From: Eledone cirrhosa
Lineage: Eukaryota
Assembly: GCA_964016885.1 (NCBI GenBank)
Contig: OZ024742.1
Location: 227,664,001-227,728,000, forward strand
Direction of reading: 5' to 3'
DNA length: 64,000 bases
The notes beneath the pieces are model-generated. The model did no database searches. It saw only the letters and a list, made by a program, of their open reading frames with translations, and was not told the origin of the DNA. The translations under genes and the position numbers were made by a program. Position 1 is the first letter of the stretch, and each line of letters begins with the position of its first letter. Positions 3,143-31,927 of the stretch are shown piece after piece.

Positions 3143-4400
3143 CCTTTTTATATTAACATTAACTATCGTTTAAATACTGTATATATTAAATATATTAAAT
3201 ATACTACCATATTTCTGATGAAATACACAACAGTATGTTTGAATTAATTTTGAAAAGTAACCAAAAATTAGAGGAATTTAGTAAAATAACTAATTTAACA
3301 AAACATTCTTGCATAAAATTAAGTAAGGGGCCTCAACCTTTCTGTAACTGACCCTGCTTCAATGATACTGAACAGATATTTTAAAGCAGTTCATATTTAT
3401 CTAAAAACCTTCCATCATAATTTTATGTAAGAAACTTTGTTAAATTGTTTCAAGCATCAACTTATAATAATGGTTTCTAATTAAGGCACAAGGCCAGCAA
3501 TTTTGGGTAAGGGGTAAGTCAGTTACAATGACACCCTCCCACTGTACTTGACTGGTACTTTATCAGTCCCAGAAGGATGAAAGACAAAGCTGAACTCAGA
3601 ATGCAAAGATCCATAACTAAATACTGTGGGGCACTTTGTCTGACACACTAATGATTCTGCCTATCCATTAGTTGTTTCACTAAACCCATCTAAATTCTTG
3701 ATTATTTTTCAGTAGGATTAAATAAGGAGTTGTTTCAGGTGGACTGGTATCAAAAGATTTAAATATGTCAACACTAACTTTACAATTAAAATACTTTCTA
3801 TATCAGTAAGCTACTTAGGTTTTATAACTATCAGCTGCAGTAGTTGACCCTCAACACAGTCCAGTGGCCAGTGTCTGTCCAATAGTTCCTGTATATAATA
3901 TAGACTGACTATTGGTGACCAAAGGTCACACCAGGAAAATTAATGTCCCCTTTGTCTCTGTCAACCACCATTGATCCCAAATCTCACATTTTATAGTTGT
4001 AGTTGATACAAGTATACACACTTTAATACTGGAGTAAATAGTAATAAATAGCTTAGCTTGTGTATAGAAATGTGTTGCAAGGGTGTACTCCCTTGAAGGC
4101 TTGCCAAATACAAGCCAAAACCACTAGACATCGCAGTCGGGTTTTTACCTTCCTTTATATATATTTATATATATAGACACACCCTGTAAGGTGGTAGTGG
4201 TGGTGCTATGAAAAAAGTTCCCAGTACACTCTCTATTGTGGTTGACATTAGGAAGGGTATCCAGTCATATAAAACAAAACCAAAAACAATACTTGATCAC
4301 TTAACCATAAATTGACAACCTAACCCATGCAAATATGGAAAACAGATGAAAAACAATGATGATGATGATGATGATGTGGGTGTGTACATACATGTGTTTG

Positions 4401-4432
<32 letters not shown>

Positions 4433-4618
4433 GTGTGTGTGTGTGAGTCCCAGGTTCAATCGGGGGTAACTACAGTAAGTAAGGTACTCAATAGAGTATA
4501 TACAAAATTTAATATAGAAATGGCTTCTACAGGACTAGAACTAAAGATCCACATAGGGTGAATCATTGTTATGGTGAACTAACTGTTGTGGAACTACTAC
4601 ATATATATACATATATAT

Positions 4619-4763
4619 ATATTTATTAAAATAATAGATTAAAGTTTAAGCAAAGAATCGCTGCTTTCACTCTTAACGGGATCTTCTGAAACTTAGAAGA
4701 TCCCGTTAAGGGTGAAAGCAGCAATTCTTTGCTTAAACTATAATCTATTATTTTAATAAATAT
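4619..4763. repeat. ~145 bp near-perfect palindrome (69-bp arms, 7-nt loop)
   Basis: ATTTATTAAAATAATAGATT...GGGATCTTCT-GAAACTT-AGAAGATCCC...AATCTATTATTTTAATAAAT with a few mismatches. Confidence 0.9.
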
Positions 4764-6809
4764 TTGCTCTAGGGTTCTTATATATTTGATATATATTTAT
4801 CCTTACCGAGCCCTCTTTGGATTTTAGTCTTCACATTTATTATTATTACATATATATATTCTTCACTCTTTCTATATATATATATATATGCTTTGTGTTA
4901 ATTTATGCATGTGCATGCATGTGTGTGTGTCGGTATAGTAAATATAAAGTGAGAGTAAGAGAAAGAGACAGAATCTAAACTATAATCATTATAAAAGAAG
5001 TAGGTGTTATGTGTTGTCATAGCAACCACTGACCTCTACTTAAACCCTCTCCATCAGATATTGGGGGTGGGAGTAGGAGGTTTAAATTGACCACAGTAGC
5101 TGACTGGTACTATATTTTATCCCCCCCCCCCCCGACAGACTCACCATAATTTGAACTAAGAACATAAAAAGCTAGAGTAAGAATACCACAAGATATATTT
5201 TCCTGACACTCTAGGAATTTCATCTATTTGTGATTGAGTATTGAATAAAATACATATGTTTCAATTAATTTTATACATATTCAAATAATTTTAAATAAAA
5301 TTTATTGGAACATAACTGAAAGTTTCTTACATAAACTTAGATAAATATAAACATTTAACTCTTTACTAACCATATTTGTAACAAAAGCACTGCTTGGAAT
5401 GCTTTTGCTGTCTTGTCCTCCTGGTGCTGCAGCTTAGAGCCCATCACCCTCCTAATTCTTCTGTGACACAAGATCCCTTACCTCTCCCTTCCTTTTCCGG
5501 AGGAAGGGGGGGGGGGGTATTTTTCTTATTTTACATTCCATTCTTTCTTCTCAATTTAAACATTTTTTTTTCTTTTTCTACTAAATAAATTGTTACTATT
5601 ATAAACATCAATTTACTACTGTTTTCTAATAAATAGATAGAATTAATAAATTCTTGAGATAAGTATACATAAAATTTTGAAAATAACCAAGAATTTGGTA
5701 GGATTTAGTAGTTTATTAAGCTGGTGTTTGGAATGTAACTTAACAAAGTTTCTTTCATAATAAAATTTTAGAATCTGGGTGTGGGGAGTCACAGTTACAT
5801 CATTGATTAAAGTTCACAAAACTGAAGAGAGAGTAGGTGAAGGTGTATATAGGTTGCCATGGTTGTTGTTATTTACACTTCCCCACCACCCACCCACTTG
5901 CATGCCACAGGTCATACTTAACCTGTGACCTATGGTATGTCTGACCTCTCTGGCACTAAGCTTTGTCAGTGATGCTGCTGCAGTAGTTATAGTAGTAGTT
6001 GTTTAGTTGTTGTAATTGTAGTAGTTATTATCATAGTAGTTGTTATTGTATTTGAAGCTGTTATGGTTGTTGTTGCTGTTGTAGTTGTCTTGTCAGCAGA
6101 TTAGGTTGGTCAGGTCAGGCCAACTCTCATTGACCTAAGTTACTGTGGGTTCGGGGGAGGGGTAGGGACAGAGACAGAGACAAGGGAATATAGAGAAGGG
6201 ATGTATATATAGTAGAGAGAAAGATTTTTGAGGGAGTGAAGGGGAATATATACACAGAGAGGTTAAGGAGAGATATGAAGAGAAAGGGAGGGAAGGTAAT
6301 AAAATAGTGTGAAAGAGAGAAAGAGAGGGCTAAACAGGCGAAAGATAGGGAAAAAGGGGAGGGAAGGTAGTAAAAGAGAGAGGTCATCTAAGATTCTAAA
6401 TGGTATTAGGTGACCTAGAAAACTGAACTTAATGGATATCATACTGAGATTTTGACCACTTGGTACTGCTCTTTACTCCCTTTCCTCCTCACAACCTTGC
6501 TTATACCACTCATCACCACCACCACCACCACAATCAGCTCCACCAATATCACCCCCAACAACTCTGTCAACATCACCAACACCATCACTACCACCCCTAT
6601 AATCATCATCATTTCAGTGTTGGTGTGGGTTGGATAGGTCATTGGTTTATTTTGAGGAGGGAAACAATGTTTTGTTTTATGTATAGAAGTGATAATTGAC
6701 CCTAGAATATTACAGATATTTAGTTACACCCTCCAATCACCTGAATCCACAGCAAAACATATTCTTCCATGTCTTCATATAGGGGTGGTATAAATAAATT
6801 TAACCCCTT

Positions 6810-7062
6810 GAAGGTGCATGGCCTAGTAGTTAAGGTTTTGGTTTGATTCCTAGACAGAGTGCTGCATTGCGTCCTTCAGCAAAATAGTTCATTTCATATT
6901 GCTCCTGTATACTCAGCTGAAAATATGTACCAGCAGTAACTGGAGAGTTCACCCTGTGATGGAATGGTGTCCTGCCCAAGGGGGAGTCTTGTATTCTCAA
7001 TCACTTTACGCCAAGGAAACCAGGATAAGCACCGGTCTGATGAGCCTCTGAACTTAAGACAG
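6810..7062 (+). mobile_element. tRNA-derived SINE family B
   Basis: GAAGGTGCATGGCCTAGTAGTTA...GTTTGATTCC...TTTCATATTGCTCC...ACTCAGCTG; shared with 30620-30935 and 42997-43140. Confidence 0.7.
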
Positions 7063-8724
7063 ATATTTTTATAATAAATTAAATGAGGGGTCAGGCATAG
7101 TTTGACACATAAATTATAAAATATTTGCTATAAAAAATAAAGTAAACAAAAATTAAATAGCAAATGTAAGGGAAAGGTGAGAGGGAGAGACATACTCTAC
7201 ACTTCAGTCTAGGGTCTATTTCAGGTGTACCCCACAGAAAATGATGAAGGAATTGCTGTGGAGAACAGCCAGTGACACATGCTGCATCAGCCACTCCACT
7301 TTACAGTCTCTTTCCTCAGGTGGGATGCAAAATGGCAGTTCAGGGATCGAAGACATCAGAGGTGTCAATGGCGCCTGGCATGAAATGGAAACAGTCGGTT
7401 GACACTAAAATATTGGTATTTAAATAATTACTCATTTTCCCTTCCACTGTATTGCCTCTAGAAACCATGTGCAAGGTGTTGGTGTTGGTGTTGGTGTTGG
7501 TGATGATAGCGATAGTTGAAGCAGTGTTGGTGTTGTTGTTGGTGGTGATGTTAGTGATAGTGATGGCAGTAGTGATGATGACAATGATGATGATGGTGAT
7601 GATAATATTCCCACCAAAATCCCAAATTCGACCAAGCCATGTTCCAATGCTCTTTACCGATATTCCATGACATAATTGGTTCGTTAGTGAGTCATTGCTT
7701 CATTAATATAAAACTGATTTCATTTAACCTAATTCCCTTCATCCCTGATTAAAAAATTATTAGTAAAAATATTTTTTTAATGTGAAAATTTAAAAAAGAA
7801 ATTAAATTTAAAGAAAAGGGAAAATTTATATATAAAAAAAATAGGGGAAATTAAAAAGAGAAAAATATAAAAGACCAGATTATAATTTTAAAGAATCAGC
7901 AAAAAGATGCTTCCAGTGGGATTGTTTATCATTGGACAAGTGCTCTAAACAGAGATTCTGTCATTAACCCTTTCGTTACCATATTTCTAATGAAAGGCAC
8001 TGTATTATCAATTAATTTTGAAAACCATCAAGAATTTGGAAGGATTTAATAATATAACTAACTTTCTCATTATTAAGCTGGTGGTTGGAGCATAACTTTA
8101 CAAAAGTTTTTTCATAAAATTATGATGGAAGATTTATAGATTAATATAAGCACTTTATCCCTTTCTTTACTATATTTCTAATGAAAGATATTAATGTATT
8201 TTGAAAATAATCAAGAATAGGTAGCAACCCATTGTATTTTTGTGGTAAAGGCTTTATCTTACATAATATTACATCTACAAGATTTTGATGTTATTTATTT
8301 TGAAAACAATACCTTAACGTCAGTATGAGCGGCCAGTTAGAACAGAAAGAGGTGAGAGAATTATGGCCGGATACAGCCAGTTTAAATGCTAAAGGGTTAA
8401 ATAAATAATCAACGAAACAAATATTTTATGAAGCATTGAACAAATTACAATTTTAAAAACATGTCAGCTTACTGTAAGCTGTTACAATGCAGGTTTGACT
8501 ACACTTTAGTCAAGTTGGGCATATAATCCCTAGAAACAGAAAAAAACTGGAAAAAGTTGCCTGCAGGAGTCAAACTTACATCTGCCGTATGCTGGATGGC
8601 TGCATTACCATTACACCAATGTGAGACTGACCTCTTACCTGTCATTTTTAAACCTTATCTATCAGCCAGATGTAAACAAAGAAGCAATGGGTTTATATGC
8701 TTGACATGTTTGACTATTTACTAT

Positions 8725-15379: not shown

Positions 15380-15466
15380 AAGCGACCAATGGCCAAGCAG
15401 TTAAATAATGAGCTAGTCCAATCGAAACGCAGCTTGCATACCTCGTGGTTTCCTACAACATGGCGG
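15380..15466 (+). promoter_or_regulatory. Putative PPP4R1 core promoter: two CCAAT boxes (15386, 15418) and a YY1-like CAACATGGCGG overlapping the ATG
   Basis: CCAAT boxes 32 bp apart (spacing typical of NF-Y pairs); AACATGGCG resembles the YY1 consensus; motif-only evidence. Confidence 0.45.
15460..15466 (+). CDS. PPP4R1: PPP4R1 coding exon 1 (ATGGCGG; M-A-[D])
   Basis: ATGGCGG|gtgagg donor; splices in frame to exons 2-10; downstream of tandem CCAAT boxes in a locally CpG-containing region. Confidence 0.75.
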
Positions 15467-15547
15467 GTGAGGCGTCTTCTAAAGCAGACTTTGTTGCTCT
15501 AATTTGAAGTTTTGCGCCAATTTTAATGCTCTCCCATTTTATTTCAG

Positions 15548-15592
15548 ACATCAACTACTATCGGGTTGTATTGGAAGATACTTCGGAAAGCA
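15548..15592 (+). CDS. PPP4R1: PPP4R1 coding exon 2 (DINYYRVVLEDTSES)
   Basis: tttcag acceptor, gtaagt donor, 45 nt, phase 1-1, open and joins exon 3 in frame. Confidence 0.75.
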
Positions 15593-17028
15593 GTAAGTGG
15601 TTGACTTAGCCTTTAAACTTTCCTAGCTTCTTTGCCCGTGTCCGTTGGCCATCTACCAAGTAGTGGAGCGTTAGACAAATCTAGCTCCTCCTCATTTATT
15701 TAACGGACTGGAGCCTGATCATGGCAAATTTCTTCTCTCCTAGTTCTCACTCTACATTTTACATGTCATTTTTTCCCTTCTTTTCACTGTTATACCTTTT
15801 GTATTGTTGTCCTAGATATTAATGTAATAACTATGGTTGTTTGTTAACCATACAGCTCATATTATTAACTGTGGGTGTTACTGCTTTAACTTAGACCTCT
15901 GGCCATAACTACAAAAGAAAAAAAGGCTGCTTCCTTCCTTTCGGACAAGTACAATCGTACTGAAACTTAAACGACGAAAGAGGGCATGGGATGTCTTTTA
16001 CTCTCTCTAGATCTCATTCTTTACACAGTTGATTACACTTAAATGTTGCCCTAGAACTTAGACATGGAGCTGACATGTTTATCTGAAGCTCCTTTAGATA
16101 TATATATATATATATGTGTGTGTATCTATGTCGCTCTAGCTTTCAAAAGCGTCCTTCTATTCCTCCTCACACTAACGATATCTAATAATTTCTTGTAATC
16201 GTTTCATTCGTCTGTTTAGAATATATTCCCCAAATATATCGACTATACTCTTACATTGTCACGTTTTTTTTTCTTAAATATAGAATTCGACAATAAATGT
16301 ACTTTTAAATCCTCGCCCCTCCTCCACTATATACACACACACACACACACACAAACCAACAAACATTTGCAAATTGTTGTCAATATCCATACCCATACCC
16401 CCTCAAGATAATCACAAAAATAACGTCAAAAAAATAAGTTGACAAATCAGATCCCTCTTTTTATGACCGTAATAAATCTTCACCTATTTGTCTATCATTA
16501 GGATTTCAAATTAACGAAATGGAATTCTATCAAATATATTAATAGTAGTAACACTAATAATAAACTAGTTTGTGTGTCTCTTACTCATTGAGAGATGTCA
16601 TTTTGGTAAATTCTCGTGATGATACTATCGTTGTTGCCTTTCTTCCCTTCTCTCTTTTTTTTTTTTTTTAACGGCTTCTAACTAACATCCACACATCGTG
16701 GTGCAGGTTTTATATATTTATATAAACCATTAAACTTTGCTGTTTTGCTTTCTTTATTAATTTGGGAGTCCGTGTCATCTTGTATTAGTAAAATGTGTGT
16801 GTGTGTAGTATTTAGTAAAATATGTATATATATTGTTTTAGGATTCAAGATTGCAGTTTTGTAATAATATACACACTTGCTGTTTTGAGTATTTTTCCGT
16901 TTGTAAACAAATGACTACCAATTCCTTTTAAATATATATATATATATATATATATTTAGACGAATACATAATACATATATGTTATTACTGACATACTTGC
17001 TTGGTAAATATTCGACTGACCTCTGCCC

Positions 17029-17059
<31 letters not shown>

Positions 17060-20000
17060 TGCATATATATGCGTGTGTGAATATGTAGTAATTCAATGTC
17101 TTAACTATATTTTTATCCCCTCCTATCCATTCATAAGATCTTTGTTTACATGTTAATTTAAAAATAGGAATCCAGTGAGATCTCATCGTTTCCCTTCCGT
17201 GTATCTTCCTTTAGCTACATACAATATGTGTGTTTGTGTGACTTCGAATTTCAAACTACAGTTTGTGTGCCTTTGGTTTACACACACGGCTCTGCCAGTA
17301 CCCTACACTCTAAACACATAGGTTTTATCCTTTAGTTCCCGCACTGCCATAATCAGTAATTTCTCTGCTTGCTTGTATGAAAACCTTCCTCCTTCACAGT
17401 TTCAAATGTGAACCCAGTATAGTGTGATTTAAAAAAAAAAAACTGGCACGAAGGCGGGGAGGTGAAAGCGGGGCATAGATGTACTATTAATACTTTGTTG
17501 GGGTTGTTTTTTTTTTTTTCTAATTTTCTTTCGAGATTTTTTTTTTATTGAAAAACCTCAAAACTTCGCTTATTTCCTCAAATTATGTGTTTTATCATGT
17601 GACCAAGGTGTTTCCTCTCGACCTTTTGAACTTAGCGCTTTTTACCAACGTTCCCGCGTCTTCCCTTTCATTCCCCCTCTGTTCAGTACTTGGCCAACTT
17701 CGCCCCTATATCTTGCCTATCTTTCGTACACCAACCTATAACCAGCAATGCTGAGCTCCCCATAATTTTATCTATTTCACTTCTTTCATCCACCTCATGT
17801 ATTATTTTTTTTAAACTAGTATATATTTCAACTATTTTAATTTCCTAGACATTGTAATCGTTTATAAAACAATTTTCCAATATTATCTGTTTAGTTAATA
17901 TTTACCGGTCTAATATTTTTTTTTAAAGAGTAAAAACTTCGTGGAGGTAGAAGTCTTTTATGATGTAGTAAGTGTAATTTAGTGTATATTTTAAACACAC
18001 CTGATATATTTTATTTTATTTTCCACACAGTTTATTGTATTTGAATAGTTTTTACTTCATTAAGAACTAAATGCATATATTTCCAGCTACATAATTGTGC
18101 GGTTCTAGTCTTTTGTGTTATTTAAAATTCTAGATTATTTATTAAGTGGTGAGTACTTGTTCTTTGTAACCACCATTTCGTCTACCTACACTATATTATT
18201 TAGGTCTTCTCATCCATCAAACTCTGCGATGCTCGTTACCGCCAAAAACTCGCACTTCGTTCAATAATTGGAAACTTTTGTTTTTTTTTCCATTTAAATA
18301 TTAAACTCCTTTTCTGTCTTTAGTCTCTAGATTTTGTTAGATTAAATTGTAGTTTTAAAAAAATATAAAATTTTTATTTTCGTTTTGTAATTTGAAGGAA
18401 AATACATTCTAAATATCTATTGTAGCGGAAGTCATATTTTAAAAAATGTGTTGAGGTTTTAGTTGGCTGCTTATATACACACACACGCACACACGGTTCC
18501 ATTATTAAAAGAAAGTGTTGTTAGTCCTGCAGCCGTAGTTGTGGTGCTTGCTCTATCACCATTACACATATCACCTAAACTGCACGTGATGATTCGCTTC
18601 GGCATTATGTCTGTGAGTTTTCTCTTTATATATATATATATGTATACATACATATACATCCGCACACATACATATATATTTAAACCTGTCACAGTCGGTA
18701 TATTTTGTCCCCCCCCCCCCCCCCCAAAAAAAAAATTAATACATGTGTGGTTTCTAGTAGTTTTCTGTAGTGTTTGTCCCGAGCATGTAAGCAAGTTTTC
18801 AGAATGAAATCGGACAGACTGCTGCTGATAATCTCTTCGTCTTTCCCTTTAATCTTTGCTTTCCTCGTCCTTTTGGTGAGGAAACAAAGCCATTGTGTTT
18901 GTTGTTATATATATATATATATATATATTTACTACTACGCTGTCCTACTACATTTTTTGTATTGTATTTCAAATACAATCTTTATTAATTTAACTTCTAC
19001 AAATAATCTGGATCTTACTACATTACAATATTGACCATTCTACGTCGTTTTTTGTATTGCAATCGGGACAACCTTTGGAACAAATGTTATTTAAATATTT
19101 TAATTTGTATTATTACGAGGGCCCCCCCCCCTCCCTCTCTCATATATACATGCATTATTTTTTGTCGTTTTCTCTCCGTTTATTTTAAAATTAAGCTTAC
19201 ATTCGATCGCAGGTTAGTAAATATTTAACCCTCTAAACTAACCTAGTTTTCTGTTTACATAACACACGCAAATAATTGAAATTAATTTAACATGAAAGTT
19301 TAATTTCTTATACAATAAATCTTTGTATATACATACACGCGTATGTATGTATGTATGTATGTATATATATATATATACTTATTCGAAGTGATATATATTC
19401 CTTTTGCCTATATTTTTGTCATCTTTCGAGAATTTAACAGGTGTTTGTGTGTGTATACATACATATAAACACGTGTGTATGTATATATATATATATACAC
19501 ACACATACACACCAACACCTTGTAAGATGGACAATTTAACAATACAAAGTATGGAGGTAGATGTTTACCAGTATATTTTTGTTATATAAAAGATGTCTTC
19601 TAATTTCATACTTAATTTAAAAATATACTATTTTTTGTTACCGTAAGTTAACTTGTATTGAATACAAAAAAAAAAAAAAAAAAATCATTGGTGGGGGTGG
19701 GGTGTTATATAATGTTGATAAAATTTATATGGAATACGGAAGTGAAAATTATAAATTTAGCTGGTTTGCTTAAATTATTTTTAATTGCGGTTATATTTAG
19801 ATATTCTAAAGTAAACAATATTTGGGTTTACAATTTTTGTATATTTTTGGTGTGTATATATATATTTGGTAGTTGGTTTGTAATTGTTGGCTAAGTAGGT
19901 CACTGTTGTTTGTCGTTCATAATACACTTCTCTTTGTTTACCAGAGTACTCGATCAATTTCTCACTTTTAAATCGATCTTTTGCATAGTTTTTCATACTA

Positions 20001-20564
20001 TTTCATAACGAAGAATATTCTGCTATTCTTGTATTTAAGGTAGGGGTGAAGTAATAATCTAATTTAATAGCGTCAGACTTTATTTTTATTAATTTGATTT
20101 ATTTATTTTTTATTTTTTTTATTCCTCTCTTCACCTCTACGAGTACATATGTTCAAAAGATTTTTTTTTTTATGTACATAATTAAAATATTAGGGATATT
20201 TTAATCAGTGAAGTAATAAAAGAATTGAGTAAGATAAAATTGAGGTCTTATGACAGTTTAAAATGGTCGAAAATGGTTTTTCATTGTGATTAATTGTGCT
20301 GCTATAAAAGGGGAGTTAATTATGATGGATATCTTAACTAGTTAGATCTCCACGAGTTATTTCCCCATTGCTTCCAATTTCACAGCACGTGCTTCTTTGC
20401 CAGTCAATATTTAGAGGGAATTTCGAAAAAAAAATCCCTTCAAATATCATTTTAGCAATCCGTATTAACAAATGTTCTAGCTATAATTAACCTCTTTAGT
20501 CATATTATAGCTTCTAGACTATACACTAGTTTAGAGCAGGGATTTTTACCTAAACGGTTAAAAA

Positions 20565-20595
<31 letters not shown>

Positions 20596-20692
20596 AGAAC
20601 TAGGTGAATAATTTGTATTGTAGAATATTAAACCTATAAACATTGTAGTATATTATCTAACAGTGTATACATAACATTTTGTCTCTTTTCAG

Positions 20693-20804
20693 GAGGGTGT
20701 AGAGTGGAAGATGGCAATTGTGAAGAGAATTACTATTCAGACGATAACCTCACAGCTCTCCAGAAACTGGAGAAGTATATTGATAGTGACAATGCCTTTA
20801 GCAG
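20693..20804 (+). CDS. PPP4R1: PPP4R1 coding exon 3 (RGCRVEDGNCEENYYSDDNLTALQKLEKYIDSDNAFSR)
   Basis: ttttcag/gtaaag sites; LTALQKLEKYIDSDNAFSR resembles the PP4R1 N-terminal LTPLGRLDKYAASENIFNR motif as recalled. Confidence 0.88.
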
Positions 20805-21724
20805 GTAAAGCTGTTATCTGAAATTTATTAAATGTTATACTAAAACAGTACTCCGGATTATCAGTCTAAATTTGAAGCTCATGACCAAGATATGTTTCTC
20901 CGACCAATATATTCTTGGGCTGTGACAACCTTCCCAATTCAATGTCGGCATAGAAAATAGATATAAAATGACAGTGGTCTAAATAATTTGTTTCTCTGAT
21001 CATGACAACCTATCCATGCCAGCCTGAAAAATTTCTGTAAAATGATAAACTAACGTTACTAAATTCTATAATTAGTTTAAAACTTGCTGACGAAGTTTTA
21101 TTCAAATTCATTCCTGGAGGTCAATAAGCTACTTTGCTCAAACAGTTCTTATTTTGAGATTTTAAATTGCTGAAATTGCGATTGATTAATTTTTGGCTAT
21201 TTTCTGGTATCATTACTGCTTTAAGTTCATTTAAAATGTACATATTTTAAATAATTCTATACCTGAGTGGTTTCAATCTGTCTGTGCCTTGACGTTTTTA
21301 GTATCACAAGTGTACTTTGGATAATATACTCAGTGACATACTGTCTCCAATACAATTTCTGAAGCTTCATCCAGCAGTAGATTAAAAACAGCTGGGTAGA
21401 TATTGTTTCAGGGAGGATCAGATAGTTCTGAATAATCTTACATTTCATAGAGTACTTCTGGTTCTGATGCTATATAGGATTAAATTAATTAACCCACCTT
21501 TGATGTTAAGAAGGGCATCTAGTAGTAAAAACCATGCCAAATTATACAACATGAGCAATATGTGGTCTTTGGCTATGGCCATAGAAAGCAGTTGTTAAAT
21601 GACTTTATATTTAATTCAATTTTAATTGTATGCAATAACATTAACACAAAGTGTGCAAAAATGTTATAATTAAATTCCTACCTTGCTGTATTTACAACAC
21701 TGCGGAGAATGGTAAACCAAGACT

Positions 21725-21947
21725 TTAACACTTTTCTAACCATATTTCTTAGTAAAATACACTGCTTGTGTTTTTCATTAGGAAAATTAATTTTGTTTAG
21801 CAATATAGGTTATCTCCTTTAATAAACTGATATTTGGGACATAAAACGTTCTTGCATAATAATGTTGGTCTTTAATTTAAATATAAACAATAAAACTCAC
21901 AGGATTTGTATTGTAGAAATGGATAATTTTGGTATTGAAAGGGTTAA
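21725..21947 (+). mobile_element. Second TTAA MITE family (TTAACCCTTTCGTTACCATATTTCT...AAAGGGTTAA); decayed copies near 3200, 5355, 7964, 10903, 28527, 29277, 29990, 31490
   Basis: Recurrent motifs TTACCATATTTCT(A/G)ATGAAA, AATTTTGAAAATAA and terminal AAAGGGTTAA. Confidence 0.6.
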
Positions 21948-22297
21948 ATACTATCTTTTTGTACTTGTGGAAACATACCTACATATATTCAATTCAGGGA
22001 TTGAATACATGGAGTACTTCTAATGTATATATCTGAACCTAGAACAGAATTGAAATGGTTATGAACTCTTTTGATGCCAGACTGACTCTGGTTCTTTGAA
22101 ACAAAATTACCCATTTTAAAGTTATCCTATCTTCCTGCATAATTTTATATATATATATAAAATTTCAAGCTACAAATATCTTAATGAAATAATAATTTTA
22201 ATTGAAATACTATCATTAGAAATGATAATGTTAATCAGTCAGAAGTTGTCTCTATTCTATTTTGTTGTTGTTTGTAATTGTCATTTATAATTTACAG

Positions 22298-22404
22298 GCA
22301 GATGATAGCACGAGGAATTCTTGACACTTTAAGAGCAGCTGGCAATGTTGAGGAAGATTGTTTAGCTGTATTAAAAGCAATGGTTCATTTATCTAGAGAT
22401 CCAG
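22298..22404 (+). CDS. PPP4R1: PPP4R1 coding exon 4 (QMIARGILDTLRAAGNVEEDCLAVLKAMVHLSRDP)
   Basis: tttacag/gttagt sites; phase 2-1; resembles QMVARSLLDTLR of PP4R1. Confidence 0.92.
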
Positions 22405-23972
22405 GTTAGTACATTTTTAGTAGATTCATATGAAAGCTGTTTTTATTTATTTTATTTTTTTACTCAGACAGTTCAGGCGTTATATTACCTTTCAAGGTGG
22501 GAGGACTGAAAGAAGGTATCCTCATACCAGACATCTTGTCTGATTATTTACAACAGTGACCTCTGCTGTAGGCAACAAAGAACCAGTTGTTTGTGTTTAA
22601 AGAAGCTATGGATTAAGTCTACCATTCAAGTAGGGCGCAGCAGCATTTGAACTGTAAATGTATAGAACTGGATGAAATATAGTATGGTTTTCTATCTGAT
22701 GACTACTTAACAATTCTACTAACCCATCACCATGGACCATTACTTATTAACCTTGGACCAATGAAAGACTTCAGCAATATTTGGACATAGGAACAGAAAT
22801 ACTGCTTGTGATTTCATCCAACAGTAAAAGCACATAGGCCATTATGATTGTGGACATCTGAGCTTGTAGGTTTTGAAAAGATCTGTTATCTATCAAAGTG
22901 ATATCAAGCTTACATTTACTGGTTGGCAGTAAGGAGAAAGATTTTGGCTATTGAAACAATTGCTTCATCAAATTTAATGGTTATAAAATAAATGAAGCAA
23001 TGTTTAACATCAAATGATATAGCAAAAAATATCTAAGTTTATAGTATATTTACTGCTCAAAATTTGCAGTTAAGACTTCTATTTTTAATGTGATGCAGTG
23101 TTTTATGCTTTTTTTTTTCTTTTCTTTTTTTTTTTTTTTTTTTAAGAATGCATTGTTAATGTGGTTGGTTCAAATGTTTATAGTGAACAGATTATTGGAA
23201 AAATTTGCAGTTAAGAGTTAAATATTGAAATTTTGTAGATTACAATGTCAAGCTGGATTGATTTAGGATTGAAGAGAAATGTAATATTTGTAGGCATGGT
23301 ACTGTTACATGAAATGATTGTGTATTTGTACTTGATTGACTTGATTTGAGACTTATGGCAGAAACATGTAGGTTCAGCTGGTCTCCTGTATGGTTTTATC
23401 TTATGAGGTTTCTCAGTTATTTTGATAGGGCTCTGTCATATGTTGTTACAACTCACAATGTAGGCTCAGCTGACCTATTTATCGGGGCCTCATTCCTATC
23501 ATGTACATATAGCTCACACCTGTGTAAGTTCAGCTACAAGGTTGCATCTCAAGTTTCTTGGGTGTTTTAATGATAGGACCCAGTCCTATGCAACATTGTG
23601 GTATTCGTTTAGGTCATTTAAAATGCTCTTAGATATCACATGATCAGTGACACAATCCTTGGGCTATGTTGATGTGGAACAGGTTGTCGGGTTTTATTTA
23701 GTCATTGGTTGGGGTGAGGGAAGAAGGACCATGTTTTGCTCACATACCCATTTTTGGCAGATTTTCTAACAGCAATCATGTCAAGAATTGAAATAATTTC
23801 TGCAGTTTTTAAATGAAGAGGAATGGCATATTTAGTGACTATTTAGATGTATAAAACATAAATGAGTGAGTAGTTATCTATAGCAGACTTGACATTATAT
23901 TTATATAATGATGTTACTGAACTTCACATCCATTGAATCAGTGTCAACTAATATACTTTTGTATGTTTTCAG

Positions 23973-24115
23973 AACCTACTGTTAGGTCCGACTTGGTTGA
24001 ACAAGTCCCTCATGTTGCCATGTACTGTCAAGAAAAAAGTAATTTATTTGCAAATGCTGTTCCTACATATATTCTTCCCTTGATTGTCAAATACCTCAGT
24101 GACAGTGACAACCAG
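23973..24115 (+). CDS. PPP4R1: PPP4R1 coding exon 5 (EPTVRSDLVEQVPHVAMYCQ...LPLIVKYLSDSDNQ), HEAT repeat
   Basis: ttttcag/gtaacc sites; HEAT-repeat motifs; within ORF 23933..24130. Confidence 0.93.
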
Positions 24116-24212
24116 GTAACCCACTTTTAGAGTTCTACTTAATTCTAGTTCTTATTTTAATTACCAATATTTCTAAAACTATAAATTACTTGATCTTTTT
24201 ACAATGTTTTAG

Positions 24213-24273
24213 GTAAGGAAAACCAGCCATGCTGCTCTCGTGGTACTTCTAGAACAAGAGCTTGTAGAACGAG
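24213..24273 (+). CDS. PPP4R1: PPP4R1 coding exon 6 (VRKTSHAALVVLLEQELVER)
   Basis: ttttag/gtaaat sites; phase 0-1; resembles VRKTSQAALLALLEQELIER. Confidence 0.92.
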
Positions 24274-25184
24274 GTAAATTTATTTCTCCTGTCACTTTTG
24301 TATATATTCACAGGCTGATCTTTACTTAAATATTCACTAGCTGAGCCTGTAAATATATTCATGCCATACACATATATATAAATTACATTCACTAGTTGAC
24401 CCTGTGGAAATTCTATGGTTTTAATTAGAAACAATCACCAAGTATTACTAGACCAATATCTTCATATTCACACAAAACTATTAGGATTAAAAAAATAATC
24501 TTGCATTGCTGCTATCACTTCTCTCTCTCTCCTTCCTTTGGTGTGACTGATGCTTTACATGAAATTCTGCTTCTGTTATGCAACTAGGCTTAGTTTGCTG
24601 ATTTTGTATCCACTGGCATGTGTGGTATAATTCATCTAAATTCTTATTTTGAGCTGCTGCAATGTTGTAGGACCACACCTCACTTGTATGTTCAATGTTT
24701 GACATGGTTTCTATAGTTAAATCCCCTTCCTAATGGCAACTATTTATCACTTAAGTGCTCTTGTAAGTTATAGGTTCCACTTGTGAGATATACAACATTG
24801 TGATTTCAATTTTGTTACAATGTTGAAAGGTGAAGAGATTTTATTTCTATTGAGGTAGTTAAAGGGACCTTTCACACCCACCCAGTCAGATTTCCAACAA
24901 TTACCAGCTTTGTTTTCTTCAGTTTAAATATACAATGCTGCCAAAATCAGCAAATTAATGAAGAATTTGGAGGTACCTATTAAAATTATTTCAATATTAA
25001 GATGGTATTTATAACAAGTTTCTTGTAGCTCAATATGGGAAGACTTTCTATAAAATAAAATTAAAATGTTCCTATTTATAGTAACAGGCTGTTTTAGATG
25101 GAATTGTAATATAAATATTTTTAGTTTCTTTACAAATGCTGTATTAATCTGGTGATAAAAAGGTAATATTTTAAATGTTTTCAG

Positions 25185-25270
25185 TTGATGTTGAAGACCA
25201 GGTGGTTCAAGTCTTGTTAGACCTTGCATGTCCAGCAGGTCCAGATGAATTTCGCACAGAAGCTGCTGCC
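25185..25270 (+). CDS. PPP4R1: PPP4R1 coding exon 7 (VDVEDQVVQVLLDLACPAGPDEFRTEAAA)
   Basis: ttttcag/gtaagt sites; phase 1-0; within ORF 25175..25516. Confidence 0.92.
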
Positions 25271-25429
25271 GTAAGTGGATTAATTTCTACTTATTTAATC
25301 CCTAAATCCTCCTTTACACATCTTGACACTAACTACTCCCTCCTCCCTTCATTCCAGCTTTGCTCCTCCCCATTTTTCAGTTTCCAGCTTCGTCCCCTTT
25401 TAATTTTTTCCAAAATAACAATTGTGTTT

Positions 25430-25495
25430 GGCTTGAAAGACACGGGTAGTGAGATGTTATGTTATAAACTTCTTACTACCCTGTCTTTCGAGCGG
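25430..25495 (+). ncRNA. mir-71: miR-71 precursor hairpin (mature 5p ~25434-25456 TGAAAGACACGGGTAGTGAGATG)
   Basis: Matches known miR-71 (UGAAAGACAUGGGUAGUGAGAUG) with 1 substitution; complementary arm TCTTACTACCCTGTCTTTCGAG at 25471-25492. Confidence 0.95.
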
Positions 25496-25530
25496 ATCAC
25501 TTTAAATCCTTGCTGATGAAATGTGAATTG

Positions 25531-25562
<32 letters not shown>

Positions 25563-25702
25563 CAGGTAAAACTGAAGTAGTTTGTCTAATTATCTACTTA
25601 CATATTGTAAAAGTTAGTTTTATGATAATGCTAGTTATTTCTGCCTTTCCCTCTCCATATTTTTACCTTTCAGTGGAACGGAACTTGTAAGTAAACAGGT
25701 TA

Positions 25703-25772
25703 CAAAGGCATCAATGCTGGATGTCATAGTAATTCTAAAGGCCCTATCACAGCCAGCTTTGATGAGCCTTGT
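25703..25772 (+). ncRNA. mir-2: miR-2 family hairpin 1 (3p 25745-25767 TATCACAGCCAGCTTTGATGAGC)
   Basis: Canonical miR-2 mature sequence; 5p arm GGCATCAATGCTGGATGTCATAG; CNNC (CATC) ~17 nt downstream of the 3p end. Confidence 0.95.
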
Positions 25773-25856
25773 GTCCTGACAGTCATCTCTGCTACATTTG
25801 ACTGCATTCCTCACAAATATTTGTAGACTTTGTTTTATAGCTTTTCAAGACAGGAA

Positions 25857-25898
<42 letters not shown>

Positions 25899-25911
25899 CC
25901 TGCCATTTCTG

Positions 25912-25982
25912 TTACTGACCAAGTGGTTGTGAATGTGCTGCTAAATTGATTTTTCATATCACAGCCTGCTTGGATCAGTAAT
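25912..25982 (+). ncRNA. mir-2: miR-2 family hairpin 2 (3p 25957-25979 TATCACAGCCTGCTTGGATCAGT)
   Basis: miR-2 seed ATCACAG; 5p arm TACTGACCAAGTGGTTGTGAATGTG pairs with it. Confidence 0.93.
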
Positions 25983-26071
25983 ATATTTGGTGCACCATCT
26001 AGCTCATTTGAATATAAGAATGGCAGTCATTTATTAAAACACTTCTAACATTGCCTATTTTCTCCTAACCT

Positions 26072-26146
26072 TGTAACAGCTCATCAAAGGACTGTGATAT
26101 ATTGATATTTGAACGTCTCACAGCCAGCTTTGATGAGCTGGCTGTA
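26072..26146 (+). ncRNA. mir-2: miR-2 family hairpin 3, seed variant (3p 26116-26138 TCTCACAGCCAGCTTTGATGAGC)
   Basis: Identical to miR-2 except A>C at position 2; 5p arm CAGCTCATCAAAGGACTGTGATAT. Confidence 0.88.
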
Positions 26147-26252
26147 GGTTGCTTCCCTGCTCTGCTAGCTTTAAACCTTTTTTTTCCTTTCTATTTTTTG
26201 TGGCAATAGCTTTTGTTCAGCTTTATTTTAGAAAAAAATTACTTTTGTCCTG

Positions 26253-26326
26253 TGTTGTATCTCATCAAAGAGCTGGGATATGCTAATAATACGCCGTATC
26301 ACAGCTAGCTTTGATGAGCTAGAACA
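26253..26326 (+). ncRNA. mir-2: miR-2 family hairpin 4 (3p 26297-26319 TATCACAGCTAGCTTTGATGAGC)
   Basis: miR-2 seed; 5p arm CTCATCAAAGAGCTGGGATATG. Confidence 0.93.
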
Positions 26327-26900
26327 GAGTTTAATACAACAGAAATCAAGATTGTGGCTTTAAAATCTACCAATTTTCTTTCTAAAATAAACCCACCAAG
26401 CATAACAATTTATATATATTTAGTCAATTGTTGGTGGTTATTTCTGGTTTCCTGGGATTTGAAGGACTTTTATTTATGTAAAATGTTTGGTGATATATAT
26501 ATATATATATATATAGGACATAAAGGAGTGTTTTTCTTTGCTCTTAAAATGTCTGAATCTGGGATATGAAGGGTCTAACATTACAGCTGTACAATGTCTC
26601 TTCTGACATCACTTCCTCATATTTATATCTATTGATATTAACTGTATTGTATCTTATCACTTGACTGGGATGTGATGTTCTATTAATATTCAACTGTTTC
26701 ATTAACTGATCTATATATTACAGCTTCTTATAACTGGATATGTCTATGACATTGCATGTTTTTACTTTTGCGATATGATGGCTGTGTCATTCAGCGATGG
26801 TTTCTGTCATAAGTTTCTTATTACTGATGTCTCTACCACAACTGGGATGTTGTCTGTCACAACTCCTTATTACGCTGTCTACATGTATTGATATCTAACT

Positions 26901-26977
26901 ATGTTGTATCTCATCAAATAACTGGGATATGGTATCTGTATGACATATCACAGCTAGCTTTGATGAGCTATGACATG
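26901..26977 (+). ncRNA. mir-2: miR-2 family hairpin 5 (3p 26946-26968 TATCACAGCTAGCTTTGATGAGC)
   Basis: miR-2 seed; 5p arm CTCATCAAATAACTGGGATATG. Confidence 0.9.
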
Positions 26978-27083
26978 GTTGTATGCTGCTTAGTTTTTCA
27001 TCAATCTGGTGTTACTTACACCTATCATTACCATTCCATTCTATATATCTCCATATATTGTGTAAGCGTGCTTTGTCTGGCTT

Positions 27084-27158
27084 AGTTGTAACTCATCAAA
27101 TAGCTGGGATATGCTGCTATTAGGACGTATCACAGCTAGCTTTGATGAGCTGGGACTT
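27084..27158 (+). ncRNA. mir-2: miR-2 family hairpin 6 (3p 27128-27150 TATCACAGCTAGCTTTGATGAGC)
   Basis: miR-2 seed; 5p arm CTCATCAAATAGCTGGGATATG. Confidence 0.92.
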
Positions 27159-27345
27159 GGTTTATTTTGGCAAACTTATTTCCTCACTATCACCACCAAC
27201 ATTAGCTGATGGCCAATTTTAAAATGTAGCTTAATGCATTATTTTTACAAACTTCTCATCACCATTTTGCTGTTGGCTAAAGTTTTGAGATGTATCTTAA
27301 TGCAATGTAGGTTTATGATTTGCTAGTTGTCAATTTGTTTGATTA

Positions 27346-27432
27346 TGACTCTGTTGTAGCTCATTAAAGAGCTGGGATATGCTGACTTTATGACATATCA
27401 CAGCTAGCTTTGATGAGCTTCAGCTGGGTCAT
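27346..27432 (+). ncRNA. mir-2: miR-2 family hairpin 7 (3p 27396-27418 TATCACAGCTAGCTTTGATGAGC)
   Basis: miR-2 seed; 5p arm CTCATTAAAGAGCTGGGATATG; extended lower stem. Confidence 0.92.
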
Positions 27433-27574
27433 TGACCACAATGTCCTGTTTGTTTCTAACAGCCATTTATCATATATTTTGATATATTTCTCATTTTAGC
27501 AGTTTAGTTTCATGGATTGGTAAAATGTTGGGATTATTGTCTTGATAATAAATTATCTTGTCAGAGAATTGAAG

Positions 27575-27868
27575 TGAAGGCGTGTGGCCTAGTGGTTACT
27601 ATGTTGGACTCAACAATCATATGGTTGGGTCAGATCCCTGGACCAGATGGTGTGTTGTATCCTTGGGCAAGATGCTTTAGTTAGGGAAAAAAAAGAATGA
27701 AATTTTCAGTTTGCCTCCTACCATGTTGCATCCCATAGGTTTCTCAGTCCTATCATGGAAAGCAACATGAAATGAAGTATCTTGCATGAGAACACAACAC
27801 GCTGCCAAATTCAGGAACCAAACTCGCTTCCCGAGTCCAAAACCTTGGCCACTAGACCATGTCCCATC
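27575..27868. mobile_element. Two SINE family B fragments in opposite orientation inside the miRNA cluster
   Basis: GAAGGCGTGTGGCCTAGTGGTTA...CCTTGGGCAAGA (+) and CTTGCATGAGAACACAACACGC...CCACTAGACCATG (-). Confidence 0.65.
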
Positions 27869-28081
27869 ACATGTTTGACTTGTTTTTATTTTAAAAAATT
27901 TGAATTAATCCATTTGCGATATGTTCTGTTCATATCATTGGCCAGGTTTTATCATTACTATTCAGTATTGAGAACGTGTTTGTTTTTGTTTTTTGTAGTT
28001 GTAGAATTCTGTTATTTCAGACAATTTACTGTTGGAGATTACTCAGCCAGGAAGGTCCCAGTGTTGGGGCTGTTTTCTCTG

Positions 28082-28154
28082 CTTTAAGTCACCAAAGTGG
28101 TGGTGATGTGTTTCTCAACTTATCATATCACAGCCAGCTTTGATGAGCTCAAAC
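28082..28154 (+). ncRNA. mir-2: miR-2 family hairpin 8 (3p 28126-28148 TATCACAGCCAGCTTTGATGAGC)
   Basis: Canonical miR-2; 5p arm GTCACCAAAGTGGTGGTGATGTG. Confidence 0.93.
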
Positions 28155-28176
28155 ATGAGACCACACAGCGATGGCT

Positions 28177-28257
28177 GGGATCTCCTTTCATCAAAGTGGC
28201 TGTCATATGCTTCTCCAATCATTCATATCACAGCCTGCTTTGATGAGAGGAAGCCCT
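28177..28257 (+). ncRNA. mir-2: miR-2 family hairpin 9 (3p 28226-28248 TATCACAGCCTGCTTTGATGAGA)
   Basis: miR-2 seed; 5p arm CCTTTCATCAAAGTGGCTGTCATATG. Confidence 0.93.
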
Positions 28258-30619
28258 TCACTGCAAATTCAGATGCCACCTCTCATACTCACAGTAGCTG
28301 CCAGAATATATATAATTGCTGCACTTTTTTTTTTTTTTTTTTTTAAATGAAAAACGCAGCACCTGTATAAATGTGATAATTTGAGAAGTTTAAATTACAA
28401 ATGTTTTGTTTTTTGTTTGTCTTTTGTTTACCATTTGTATATCAATGTGGTTTGTAATAAATAGGTGGTGGTAAATTTGCATATTTTAGTTCTGTTCTTA
28501 AGTACTATATAGTATTCCAATTATATTTAACCACCCTATTGTTACCATATTTCTAATGAAATACGCTATGGTTTTCATATAATTTTGAAAATAATTATGG
28601 ATGAAGAGATTTAGTAAAACATCTTATCTGGTGTTTGGAGCATAAGCTCTTGCATAAAGTTCTGATGGATTGCTTTTGAGATTAATATAAACACTAAACT
28701 CAAACATTTTTTAGATATTTTCCACACGAGGATGTTAAATTCAAATATTTATAGTATCTTTATTAAGTGGGCCTACTATTGTGAAAATGTGAAGTATTAG
28801 AGTAAAGACTTCAATATTTAATGTTTTATACTTTTCTGCTTTGATAGATGTTATTGCTCTAATCCTCCTGTTAAATGTTTTATGGAACAATTTGGTGTTG
28901 ATTCGAAATAGTTTATTTAAACTCTTCTGTTACCATATTTCAAATGATTTGCCCTATATTTCAGTTTGTGAGGGATTTACAAAGATGGTATTTACAATAA
29001 ATGGTTCTTATATAAAATTGTTGGAAGATTTTAATTCATATAGGAACCCTTTAAATTGGATCATTTGTTTCATAGACTGAACTAATTTTGACTGTCTGAA
29101 AAATGAAAAAATAGGAATATAAATTTTTTTTTTTTATGAATGCCTTGTTAATGATTGCAGTTACATGTTCAGGAAATTGAGTTAATACAGTGCCACCACC
29201 ACTATAGTGGTGACATGTATATAGCTAAGCTTTGAAAATTTGACAAATTTAAAAAAAAAAAAATTTTTTTTATTTTTTAACTCTTTTGAAATCAAGAACT
29301 AGTCAATTCTTCCTTTATTTTTCTCTAAAAGAAATTGGCTGTGTTCAGACATGGAGCAGGATGGGTTCTGCCGAGTTTTTAATGCTCAAGGGCAGCACCT
29401 CTATGACTACATCAGAAGTTTTCCTTCCCGTTTTAAAATTTTTCCAAGGAGCATTAATGATTGAATGAGTCTTGACTATTTTAACTAACTTTATCAATAT
29501 ATCTCTGATGTTTAGTACTTAACTTATTAGGTTCTTAAACTTCTGTATCATAAAACCAGGGCCAGTTTCAGGTGATTTTGTATCAAATGGGTTAATGTTT
29601 TTTTTCTACATCATTATAAATTTCAATTAAATGTGTGACCAGTCATACTGTTATGTGAAGGGCTTTTTCACAACAATGTATTGTATTTCTGAATATTTTA
29701 TTTGTTCATTGCATTGACAAAATGATTATCACTGATCAACCCATTTCTAACCATTGTAATGAAAGACACTGCCAATGATTTTCAAATAATTTTGAAAATA
29801 AAGAATTTTAAGTGAATTACTTAAAATTACAAGAGAACTTTTAGTTGAAAACAGCTTTGTATTGTAGGATCAGGTATGCTTTCAATATTCCAGTGCAGTG
29901 ATAGTTTATCTGCCTAAATGTCCTTTAGAATTGCTGACAAAAGCTAATTTTCAGTTAGCGTACTGTTTATTTTTGTATTCTGATTTAATCATTTTCTTAC
30001 CATATTTTTAAAGAATTGCATTTGAATTAATGAAGAATTTTGAGGGATTTACTAAGATTATACTTCTATTAAGAAGGTATTTGTAATATAACTTAAATGG
30101 TTGTAAAACTGCATAGGTACCTTTTTATATGAGGAGTTTTGCTTCATGGAATCTTGGGCAGTTTTAGGTGGATTGGCATGAAAAGGGTTGAATATTTTTT
30201 TTCTTTTTGTTTGAAAGGATTTCATAGTTATGGTAAAATAGTGTTAGTACTATTCCAAACTTTTTTTTAACTTAAAATTTATAAAAGGCGCAATAAAGTT
30301 AAGCCTTAAATTAATGTTACATCAATACATTGTCAATGAAGTTGTATATTGTTTATTTACTCATTGTTGAATGCCCTTTCTGGTGCTAACTTAGTTGTCT
30401 CTTTTAAAAGAAACACTTGTATATTATATCAAGTGGATGTTTTAATATTTTAAACTTTTGTTTAAAACTGGTTTAATTCAAATGTATAGACATTTTTTTT
30501 CTACTGGACCGATTAAAATTTGCAGTACCAGGCTTCCATTTTGAATGTAATGCTGTTTGTACTTTTATAAAAAATCTCTTGCTAATGTAGTTTAATTCAA
30601 ATATTTATATCTTTAACGG

Positions 30620-30935
30620 TGAAGATGTGTGGCTTGGTGGTTACAGAGTTGAATTCACAATTGTAAAGTTGTGAATTTGATTCTCGTGCTGGGTAATGAG
30701 TTGTCTCTGAGCAAGACTCTTTATTTCTCATTGATCCAATTCACTCAGTTGTAGAAATAAGTTGCAACATCATTGGTGCCAAGCTGTATTGGCCTTTCTT
30801 TCCCTTGGACAACATTGATTGCATGGAAAGGGGAGACTGGTGTGGCTGCTGGTCTATTGGAAAAACACCTTGACAGGGCTTGGGACTTTCTAGGTGCAAA
30901 ACCCATGATTATTTGAGACTGAAAGGGGTCTTTAA
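30620..30935 (+). mobile_element. tRNA-derived SINE family B
   Basis: TGGCTTGGTGGTTA...TGAGCAAGACTCTTTATTTC...CACTCAGTTGTAGAAAT. Confidence 0.7.
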
Positions 30936-31121
30936 CAGATTGTGAAGATTTATTTCTAATGTGAAGCGGTCAATGTTTTGTACTTCGCAAGACTGTCTTG
31001 CCAGTGTGATTTAATTTAAATGTTTATATTTTACTATTGTACAGATTGCGAAATTTTGCTAATGTGATACAGGATGTTAAGAGATAGATTTAAAAGTAAC
31101 TCTGTTGGATTGTTATAAAGT

Positions 31122-31167
<46 letters not shown>

Positions 31168-31355
31168 TAAAACCTGGGTGATTTCATCATTCCATTCACT
31201 GGAGTTTAGAAATACAATGGGCCCCATCTTTTACTTCGCAAATTAGTTTCCTAACCCCTACTGTTATATAGGACCCACGTATGTTTTGGAGGAGGCATAA
31301 AATCAGGATCTCTGTTGGTTGAGATCACTTGGGAAAAAGAATATCAGTAGAGGTT

Positions 31356-31398
<43 letters not shown>

Positions 31399-31822
31399 TG
31401 AACATTAGGTGATGTAGTTTCATGTGGAACTAACTATTTGGAATTTTAAAGCTCTGAATTTTTAAAAGTATCTCCGAACCACTTAGGTTGAACCTTTCAT
31501 TACCATATTTCTAACAAAAGGCATTGCCTGTTTTCAAATCATTTTGAAAATATCTCCTAATTTCATGTTTCAAACATAAGCAAAGGTACTAATTATGGTG
31601 AAGGGTTTTCAGATAAATACAAACACTTCGGAACAGGGGTGGTTTAGTATCTAGAGGTTTTTAACTGAACAAGATTCAGGCCCACTGTAAAGTAATGTCA
31701 CAAAATTTAGTCTTATCAGAAAGTTTGACTTATATTTATTTCTGTGTTACCTATTTTGATATTTTCCTTCCTTAATGTTTCTATGCATGTGCTCACATAT
31801 TTGTCTGGATTTCTTTCAACAG

Positions 31823-31927
31823 TTGATGTGCAAAATGGCACCTTTGCTTGGAAGGGAGATGACAGAACGATTGTTTCTTGCCCGTTTTACTCAGATGTGT
31901 TCAGATCCACTGTTCCATGTCCGAAGG
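31823..31927 (+). CDS. PPP4R1: PPP4R1 coding exon 8 (LMCKMAPLLGREMTERLFLARFTQMCSDPLFHVRR)
   Basis: ttcaacag/gtaagc sites; phase 0-0; HEAT motif ...FHVR(K/R). Confidence 0.93.

Follow-up and report, generated by a model that had tools for sequence, protein, structure and literature searches.

In protostomes, miR-71 and miR-2 generally lie in an intron of the gene for protein phosphatase 4 (PP4) regulatory subunit 1, and miR-2 acts via K-box sites. [quoted passage not shown] The number of genes and clusters differs among the animals described: five clusters are given for planarians, and a figure of '15 expected paralogs' of MIR-2 is quoted for a lepidopteran analysis (MirMachine 2 preprint). 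The described molluscan cluster used here for comparison is that of the gastropod Biomphalaria glabrata, which contains miR-71, 2a-1, 2d, 2b and 2a-2 in one intron (PMC11353429). In Caenorhabditis elegans, mir-71 lies within an intron of the phosphatase regulatory gene ppfr-1, and the region upstream of it, inside this host intron, is active in reporters (PMC3410857). In Octopus vulgaris, Ovu-Mir-71_5p, Ovu-Mir-2-o21_3p and Ovu-Mir-2-o24_5p are reported with thousands of reads in tissues (Zolotarov et al., 2022; PMC9699675). Products with a displaced 5' end have also been described in this family, e.g., the miR-2 product of Drosophila mir-2a-2 and mir-2c, which is offset by 2 nt and, for mir-2a-2, loaded into Argonaute (PMC3384581), and the offset form of the land snail bsi-miR-2b, with 1299 reads vs 1285 for the canonical form (PMC7838618).

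The locus presented here is a cluster of this type, composed of one miR-71 and nine miR-2 hairpins located in sense orientation in intron 7 of PPP4R1. In the window, i.e., the whole 64-kb stretch of DNA that was analysed, miR-71 stands upstream of the miR-2 copies and the ten hairpins share the plus strand between 25428 and 28252, well within 10 kb (Table 1). An Rfam profile search of the window returned one match to mir-71 (RF00832), above the 50-bit cut-off of this family and with the predicted mature sequence on the paired 5p arm, and nine matches to mir-2 (RF00047), all on the plus strand, eight of which exceed the gathering score of 45.5 bits. The match below this score is copy 1 (E 1.6e-5), whose arm and loop-side letters are, by eye, similar to those of cte-mir-2b and bmo-mir-2a-1. 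Each of the ten sequences forms one hairpin in which the mature arm is paired, and their z values range from -2.3 to -9.6 when computed against 200 dinucleotide shuffles per hairpin. The number of shuffles that folded equally well was zero for seven hairpins, one for two hairpins and five for copy 8. Folded jointly, copies 8 and 9 give two separate hairpins. Both the Rfam matches and the folding of each sequence thus bear out the ten intact hairpins (one miR-71 and nine miR-2) proposed in the initial annotation of this DNA.

Membership of the miR-2 family is also evident from the 3p arms. The nine-letter miR-2 start TATCACAGC occurs eight times in the window, against 0.86 occurrences expected, and always within the cluster, and the canonical MIR-2 seed ATCACAG is found at 3p positions 2-8 in eight of the nine copies. 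The 3p pattern that the initial annotation ascribed to all nine arms therefore holds for eight of them and fails in copy 3 (3p start at 26116), which has a C at position 2. A 20-letter pattern covering the nine 3p arms has exactly nine matches in the 3.0-Gb genome, all of them in the cluster (reversed control, 0); with this pattern, no miR-2 3p arm was found elsewhere. Rfam searches of the genome gave no other miR-71/miR-2 locus among the best 60 candidates scored. The CNNC motif, which marks processing by Drosha, is present 17-19 nt beyond the 23-nt 3p product in seven of the nine copies, the exceptions being copies 6 and 9 (background 0.105; binomial p 4e-6, for a distance window picked post hoc, after inspection of the data). 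The arms are more conserved than the loops and flanks, both across species and among copies, as in bona fide microRNAs.

Table 1. Features of the cluster of miR-71 and miR-2 and of its host gene PPP4R1 (positions are those of the 64-kb window).
Feature	Position	Strand	Details
PPP4R1 coding exon 1 (ATG)	15460..15466	+	GT donor; joined frame matches reference protein from residue 1
PPP4R1 exon 2	15548..15592	+	
PPP4R1 exon 3	20693..20804	+	
PPP4R1 exon 4	22298..22404	+	
PPP4R1 exon 5	23973..24115	+	matches O. vulgaris PPP4R1-like isoform X2 at 47/47 residues
PPP4R1 exon 6	24213..24273	+	
PPP4R1 exon 7	25185..25270	+	just upstream of cluster
miR-71 hairpin	25428..25497	+	RF00832, 66.1 bits; fold z -9.6; predicted mature 5p 25434-25456; sole locus among best 60 genome candidates
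miR-2 copy 1	25704..25771	+	3p start 25745; 40.5 bits; fold z -3.2; old paralogue type
miR-2 copy 2	25912..25983	+	3p start 25957; 47.1 bits; miR-2d type
miR-2 copy 3	26077..26142	+	3p start 26116, C at 26117; 48.8 bits
miR-2 copy 4	26258..26323	+	3p start 26297; 50.9 bits
Decayed miR-2 copy	26635..26707	+	3p arm eroded but 5p arm still recognisable; does not fold into a hairpin
miR-2 copy 5	26907..26972	+	3p start 26946; 47.8 bits
miR-2 copy 6	27089..27154	+	3p start 27128; 53.7 bits
miR-2 copy 7	27357..27422	+	3p start 27396; 46.9 bits
Two inverted dispersed-repeat fragments	27572..27830	.	between copies 7 and 8
miR-2 copy 8	28085..28152	+	3p start 28126; 60.7 bits
miR-2 copy 9	28184..28252	+	3p start 28226; 58.4 bits
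PPP4R1 exon 8	31823..31927	+	closes host intron

The host gene is represented by eight GT-AG exons that, joined from 15460 to 31927, form an open frame of 222 aa. This frame is identical to the PPP4R1-like protein of O. vulgaris at 217 of 222 residues (98%), and to the PPP4R1 proteins of Argonauta and cuttlefish at 212 and 179 residues, respectively. These identities place the genome among the octopods, probably in a species other than O. vulgaris. The 47-aa exon is identical to [quoted passage not shown] of O. vulgaris (eight of ten candidates passed, including Argonauta and cuttlefish PPP4R1); searched singly against Pfam and PDB, the exons gave no useful match. The cluster occupies the seventh coding intron (25271-31822), sense to PPP4R1, in agreement with the placement first proposed, and the miR-71 hairpin is separated from exon 7 by 157 nt. 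A promoter independent of PPP4R1 is possible for the octopod cluster by analogy with C. elegans mir-71, since the reporter-active upstream region of the latter lies within the host intron. The repeat of which two fragments separate copies 7 and 8 has at least 44 matches genome-wide and very high contig depth, and the stretch with the two inverted fragments folds back on itself (z -5.2). The tRNA-like box letters of the repeat suggest a SINE-like element; no tRNA genes were found in the 64-kb window.

Contigs from four runs were aligned on positions 25100-28500. In organism D (X6), pieces or joints were found at all ten hairpins, in unchanged order and with several spacers replaced, while organism C (X5) has copies 2-9 (eight of the nine miR-2) and organism B (X4) has miR-71 and copies 1-7 (seven of the nine). 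Coverage holes, which comprise copies 8-9 in B and miR-71 and copy 1 in C, of whose run 88% was read, are not counted as losses. In organisms C and D the hairpins can be aligned where the spacers are replaced, and in D a further match to the 3p arm lies at a distance of 81 nt behind copy 1. The X1 contigs, which possibly stem from the assembly's own source, show 0 differences across copies 2-9. By their likeness, organisms B, C and D are probably octopods, and, as judged from these alignments, they have the nine-copy state in common, with some turnover at its edges, and the count is not specific to one species. The enlargement of the cluster to nine miR-2 by tandem duplication is likely to have taken place before the split of the octopods examined. 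The count is thus not novel with respect to relatives, and the lineage-specific expansion put forward in the initial annotation stands in comparison with the gastropod (four miR-2 in Biomphalaria), where it concerns copies 3-7, and not as a property of this species, because it is shared with B, C and D. Nine miR-2 is a large number beside the four of Biomphalaria and lies near the known range, of which the eight of Drosophila and the 15 quoted for a lepidopteran analysis are examples.

The similarity among copies is informative on how this number was reached. Over a stretch of 91 nt, copies 4-7 share 75-78% of their letters and the other copies 49-64%; in the tree, copies 4-7 group with moderate clade support (76). 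Copies 1, 2, 8 and 9 are distinct types, with pairwise identities of 49-63%, and copy 3 is 63-70% identical to copies 4-7, with a tree support of 29 for its place. All six pairs formed by copies 4-7 have the same 24-nt 3p arm (100% identity), while identity is 86-95% in the 5p arm, 43-71% in the loop and 35-62% in the flanks. Copies 4-7 would thus be old enough to have lost their flanks, yet their arms have been held, which supports purifying selection on the survivors. As the order of the cluster matches that of the snail, copies 3-7 probably occupy the single slot of snail miR-2b, and the excess over the four miR-2 of Biomphalaria can be traced to this one slot. A copy-number history of tandem birth-and-death, with purifying selection on the surviving copies, is supported by the presence of a decayed copy here and of the extra 3p-arm match in organism D, and the same conclusion was reached for the family in PMC3384581.

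The decayed copy sits between copies 4 and 5. Its local alignment with copy 5 has a score of 52, compared with a maximum of 42 in 1000 spacer shuffles, and it is detected by nhmmer with an E of 0.028 in the masked window; its fold z is +0.4. Two other candidate decayed copies, at 26709-26752 and 26816-26857, were rejected with scores of 29 and 26, which are inside the shuffle range. Neither the decayed copy nor the altered copy 3 was mentioned in the initial annotation.

In the reading that we favour, and consider highly probable, the conserved protostome miR-71/miR-2 cluster in PPP4R1 intron 7 has been enlarged in tandem to nine miR-2 copies, the guides of which are mostly redundant and raise the dose of one seed. 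In this pathway, the hairpins would be co-transcribed with PPP4R1 and cropped from the host transcript by Drosha and Dicer, with the 3p arm as the dominant guide. Eight copies would yield the canonical seed and, from what is described for the family, act redundantly and at a raised dose, and neural and apoptosis transcripts would be repressed as in flies and worms. Dominance of the 3p arm may not be valid for every copy, because one Mir-2 paralogue of O. vulgaris is listed by its 5p arm (PMC9699675), and dosage is the presumed cause of the expansion, with which other reasons for retaining the copies compete. Of the six Hairy_orange loci, the four with a recognisable C-terminus and stop were considered as possible targets and the two that have no defined stop were excluded. 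Behind these four Hairy/HES-like genes miR-2 sites are not enriched over permuted words, with one site within 2 kb. One of the genes has K-box-type sites 11, 2032 and 2793 nt behind its stop, and the other three have none in 3 kb.

The extra copies might instead be the product of neutral tandem duplication and drift, being alike through recency or gene conversion and not through selection on dose. We regard this as improbable, although drift-driven turnover is favoured for the miR-2 family in PMC3384581, failed births are represented by the decayed copy here and the partial duplicate in organism D, and some secondary contig pieces hint at conversion at the level of the arms. The arms are 86-100% identical while the loops and flanks of the very same copies are 35-71% identical, and every copy is retained even where the spacers of a species can no longer be aligned, both of which speak against neutrality. 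A large cluster ancestral to cephalopods or to molluscs, from which the gastropods lost copies, would do away with an octopod expansion. The high numbers of MIR-2 paralogues described in other protostomes would fit such an ancestor, and the gastropod comparison consists of one cluster only, but copies 4-7 retain alignable flanks and an identity of 75-78%, above that of the proven-old copies 1, 2, 8 and 9, and we regard this scenario, too, as improbable. That the miR-2 repeats are an artefact of assembly, a view to which nothing but the repeated arms could lend support, has a negligible probability: loops and flanks differ from copy to copy, and this explanation was discarded on account of the same order in the contigs of three other species and the X1 contigs free of differences.

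Within the favoured reading of a tandem-enlarged cluster, copy 3 is a special case. Its 3p arm is TCTCACAG where TATCACAG is expected, with a C in place of the A at seed position 2 (26117). By descent, copy 3 is a MIR-2 paralogue that stands outside the canonical-seed members. In three other species the C at 26117 persists in four of four orthologous contigs, two of which come from separate runs of D and one each from B and C. The 81-nt stretch 26070-26150 is fully spanned in these contigs (B, C, D and D) with 0, 2, 2 and 2 differences, respectively, and the list of differences includes 26103 and excludes 26117, both of which are 34 letters from an end. Position 2 has a pairing probability of 0.07 in copy 3 and of 0.77-1.0 in the eight remaining copies, the helix of copy 3 is perfect from position 3 onward, and its CNNC is 1 nt more distant than that of copies 4, 5, 7 and 8. 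A 24-nt product from 26116 together with a 22-nt 5p arm fits the hairpin, as in copies 4-7, and the CNNC spacing and hairpin geometry are compatible with starts at 26116 and at 26118.

Three products of copy 3 can be envisaged. We see an even chance that it is cut 2 nt downstream, from 26118, with a predicted shift of the seed; such a cut would leave the C outside the guide, which would explain the tolerance of the changed letter. If copy 3 were cut canonically, its guide would have a changed seed and a different set of sites, and copy 3 would be a conserved neofunctionalised octopod miR-2 paralogue. The persistence of the C in all four orthologous contigs of the three species with 0-2 differences over 81 nt, the fit of the 24-nt 3p and 22-nt 5p arms with a CNNC at 18, and the absence of the change, by eye, from all 62 precursors in the alignment of PMC3384581 are consistent with this possibility. 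However, position 2 is unpaired in copy 3 only, in front of a perfect helix, the CNNC is displaced by 1 nt from that of copies 4, 5, 7 and 8, and a +2 product has already been described as an abundant form (PMC3384581, PMC7838618). Moreover, the whole hairpin is conserved, so the C itself need not be selected. A canonical cut with a new seed is for these reasons somewhat unlikely, and a weak or mixed product of copy 3 is less likely still. Neither the shifted product nor the one with a new seed can carry the canonical seed. A wider scenario, in which one slot was expanded fivefold in octopods and copy 3 was freed for a new seed letter, so that the polycistron would combine a high dose of canonical miR-2 with a conserved retargeted paralogue that has targets of its own, is tentative and, in our estimate, slightly less probable than the new seed itself.

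While the cluster itself is textbook knowledge, the conserved altered copy 3 is an under-described point. The octopus locus offers a case of microRNA birth-and-death in which old copies occur next to a younger series of four nearly identical ones, a dead copy and a conserved non-canonical copy. A retargeted and conserved miR-2, if true, would be an exception to the reported redundancy of the family, and the diversification of an old neural family would add to the expansion of new families already described in coleoids. The altered 13-letter arm of copy 3 has no occurrence in the relevant paper texts searched, and neither the octopus miR-2 count nor the altered copy was found in the published texts searched, the supplementary tables of which may hold both. 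It is likely that the octopus cluster, and perhaps the true product of copy 3, is already in MirGeneDB.

In its architecture the octopod locus agrees with the known protostome cluster, which also begins with miR-71 followed by tandem miR-2 copies with a conserved 3p arm (PMC3384581). It differs in having nine miR-2 in one cluster, where most insects have five in each cluster and the eight of Drosophila are spread over several loci (PMC3384581), and in the altered position 2 of copy 3. The families are those of O. vulgaris, for which Ovu-Mir-71 is annotated alongside no fewer than two Mir-2-o genes, o21 and o24 (PMC9699675). The Biomphalaria cluster is likewise intronic and has the same order (PMC11353429): the 23-nt 3p sequence of copy 2 is exactly that of bgl-miR-2d-3p as printed in PMC7328434, and the 5p arm of copy 8 is similar to bgl-miR-2a-2-5p (PMC7328434). 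From this order, the single miR-2b slot of the snail would correspond to five copies and a decayed one in the octopod, whereas copy 9 has no counterpart among the snail microRNAs listed, in lists that may be incomplete. Finally, the product predicted for copy 3 resembles the seed-shifted miR-2 of Drosophila mir-2a-2 and mir-2c and of the land snail bsi-miR-2b in its 2-nt offset, but position 2 of the fly mir-2a-2 and mir-2c hairpins is still the canonical A, which copy 3 has replaced.

Inside the cluster of miR-71 and miR-2 hairpins, the two SINE-like repeat fragments listed in the table form a long stem (fold z -5.2), and one contig of organism C, a relative, joins across this region. The pair is a possible candidate substrate for A-to-I editing. 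Behind the decayed miR-2 copy, which lies between copies 4 and 5, two weaker 5p-arm-like fragments (26709-26890) were not significant when compared with shuffles.

Repeat features of the window and their positions
Feature	Position	Details
Inverted pair of SINE-like repeat fragments	27572-27830	inside the cluster of miR-71 and miR-2 hairpins
Tandem duplication	51301 to window end	period ~5.6 kb; 91% identity

In contigs of a second relative, organism D (runs X6 and X7), an additional exact miR-2 3p-arm match, which is preceded by letters resembling the loop of copy 1, follows at a distance of 81 nt the stretch that matches window 25747-25767 and has no counterpart in the window. This additional match is read as a partial tandem duplicate in that species. 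At the positions of copies 4, 5 and 7 in runs X7 (organism D) and X5 (organism C), some secondary contig pieces differ at 0 positions from the 3p arm of copy 3, where 1-2 differences were expected from the window's paralogues. Such pieces may stem from polymorphism, from gene conversion at the level of the arms or from an oddity of the counting.

Downstream in the host gene, no PPP4R1 exon past residue 300 was found in window 33705-64000, which implies an intron of >30 kb. Simple repeats are abundant in this intron, which also contains the tandem duplication given in the table and fragments that we take to be LINE-like.

Among possible targets, the Hairy/HES-like locus L023 (G000:C399:74580-77579) carries three miR-2-type sites at most 2.8 kb behind its stop codon, that at 2032 being a full 8-mer. 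These sites were not significant over the Hairy/HES-like gene set, and L023 is put forward as a candidate miR-2 target.

As for known O. vulgaris miRNAs, the 5p arm is the one under which table S4 of PMC9699675 enters Ovu-Mir-2-o24. The entry has 1450-7197 reads and suggests that O. vulgaris has a miR-2 paralogue whose mature arm is the 5p one. Judged from its predicted ends, and if positions are 0-based, Ovu-Mir-2-o24 would be of the copy 8 or copy 9 type.
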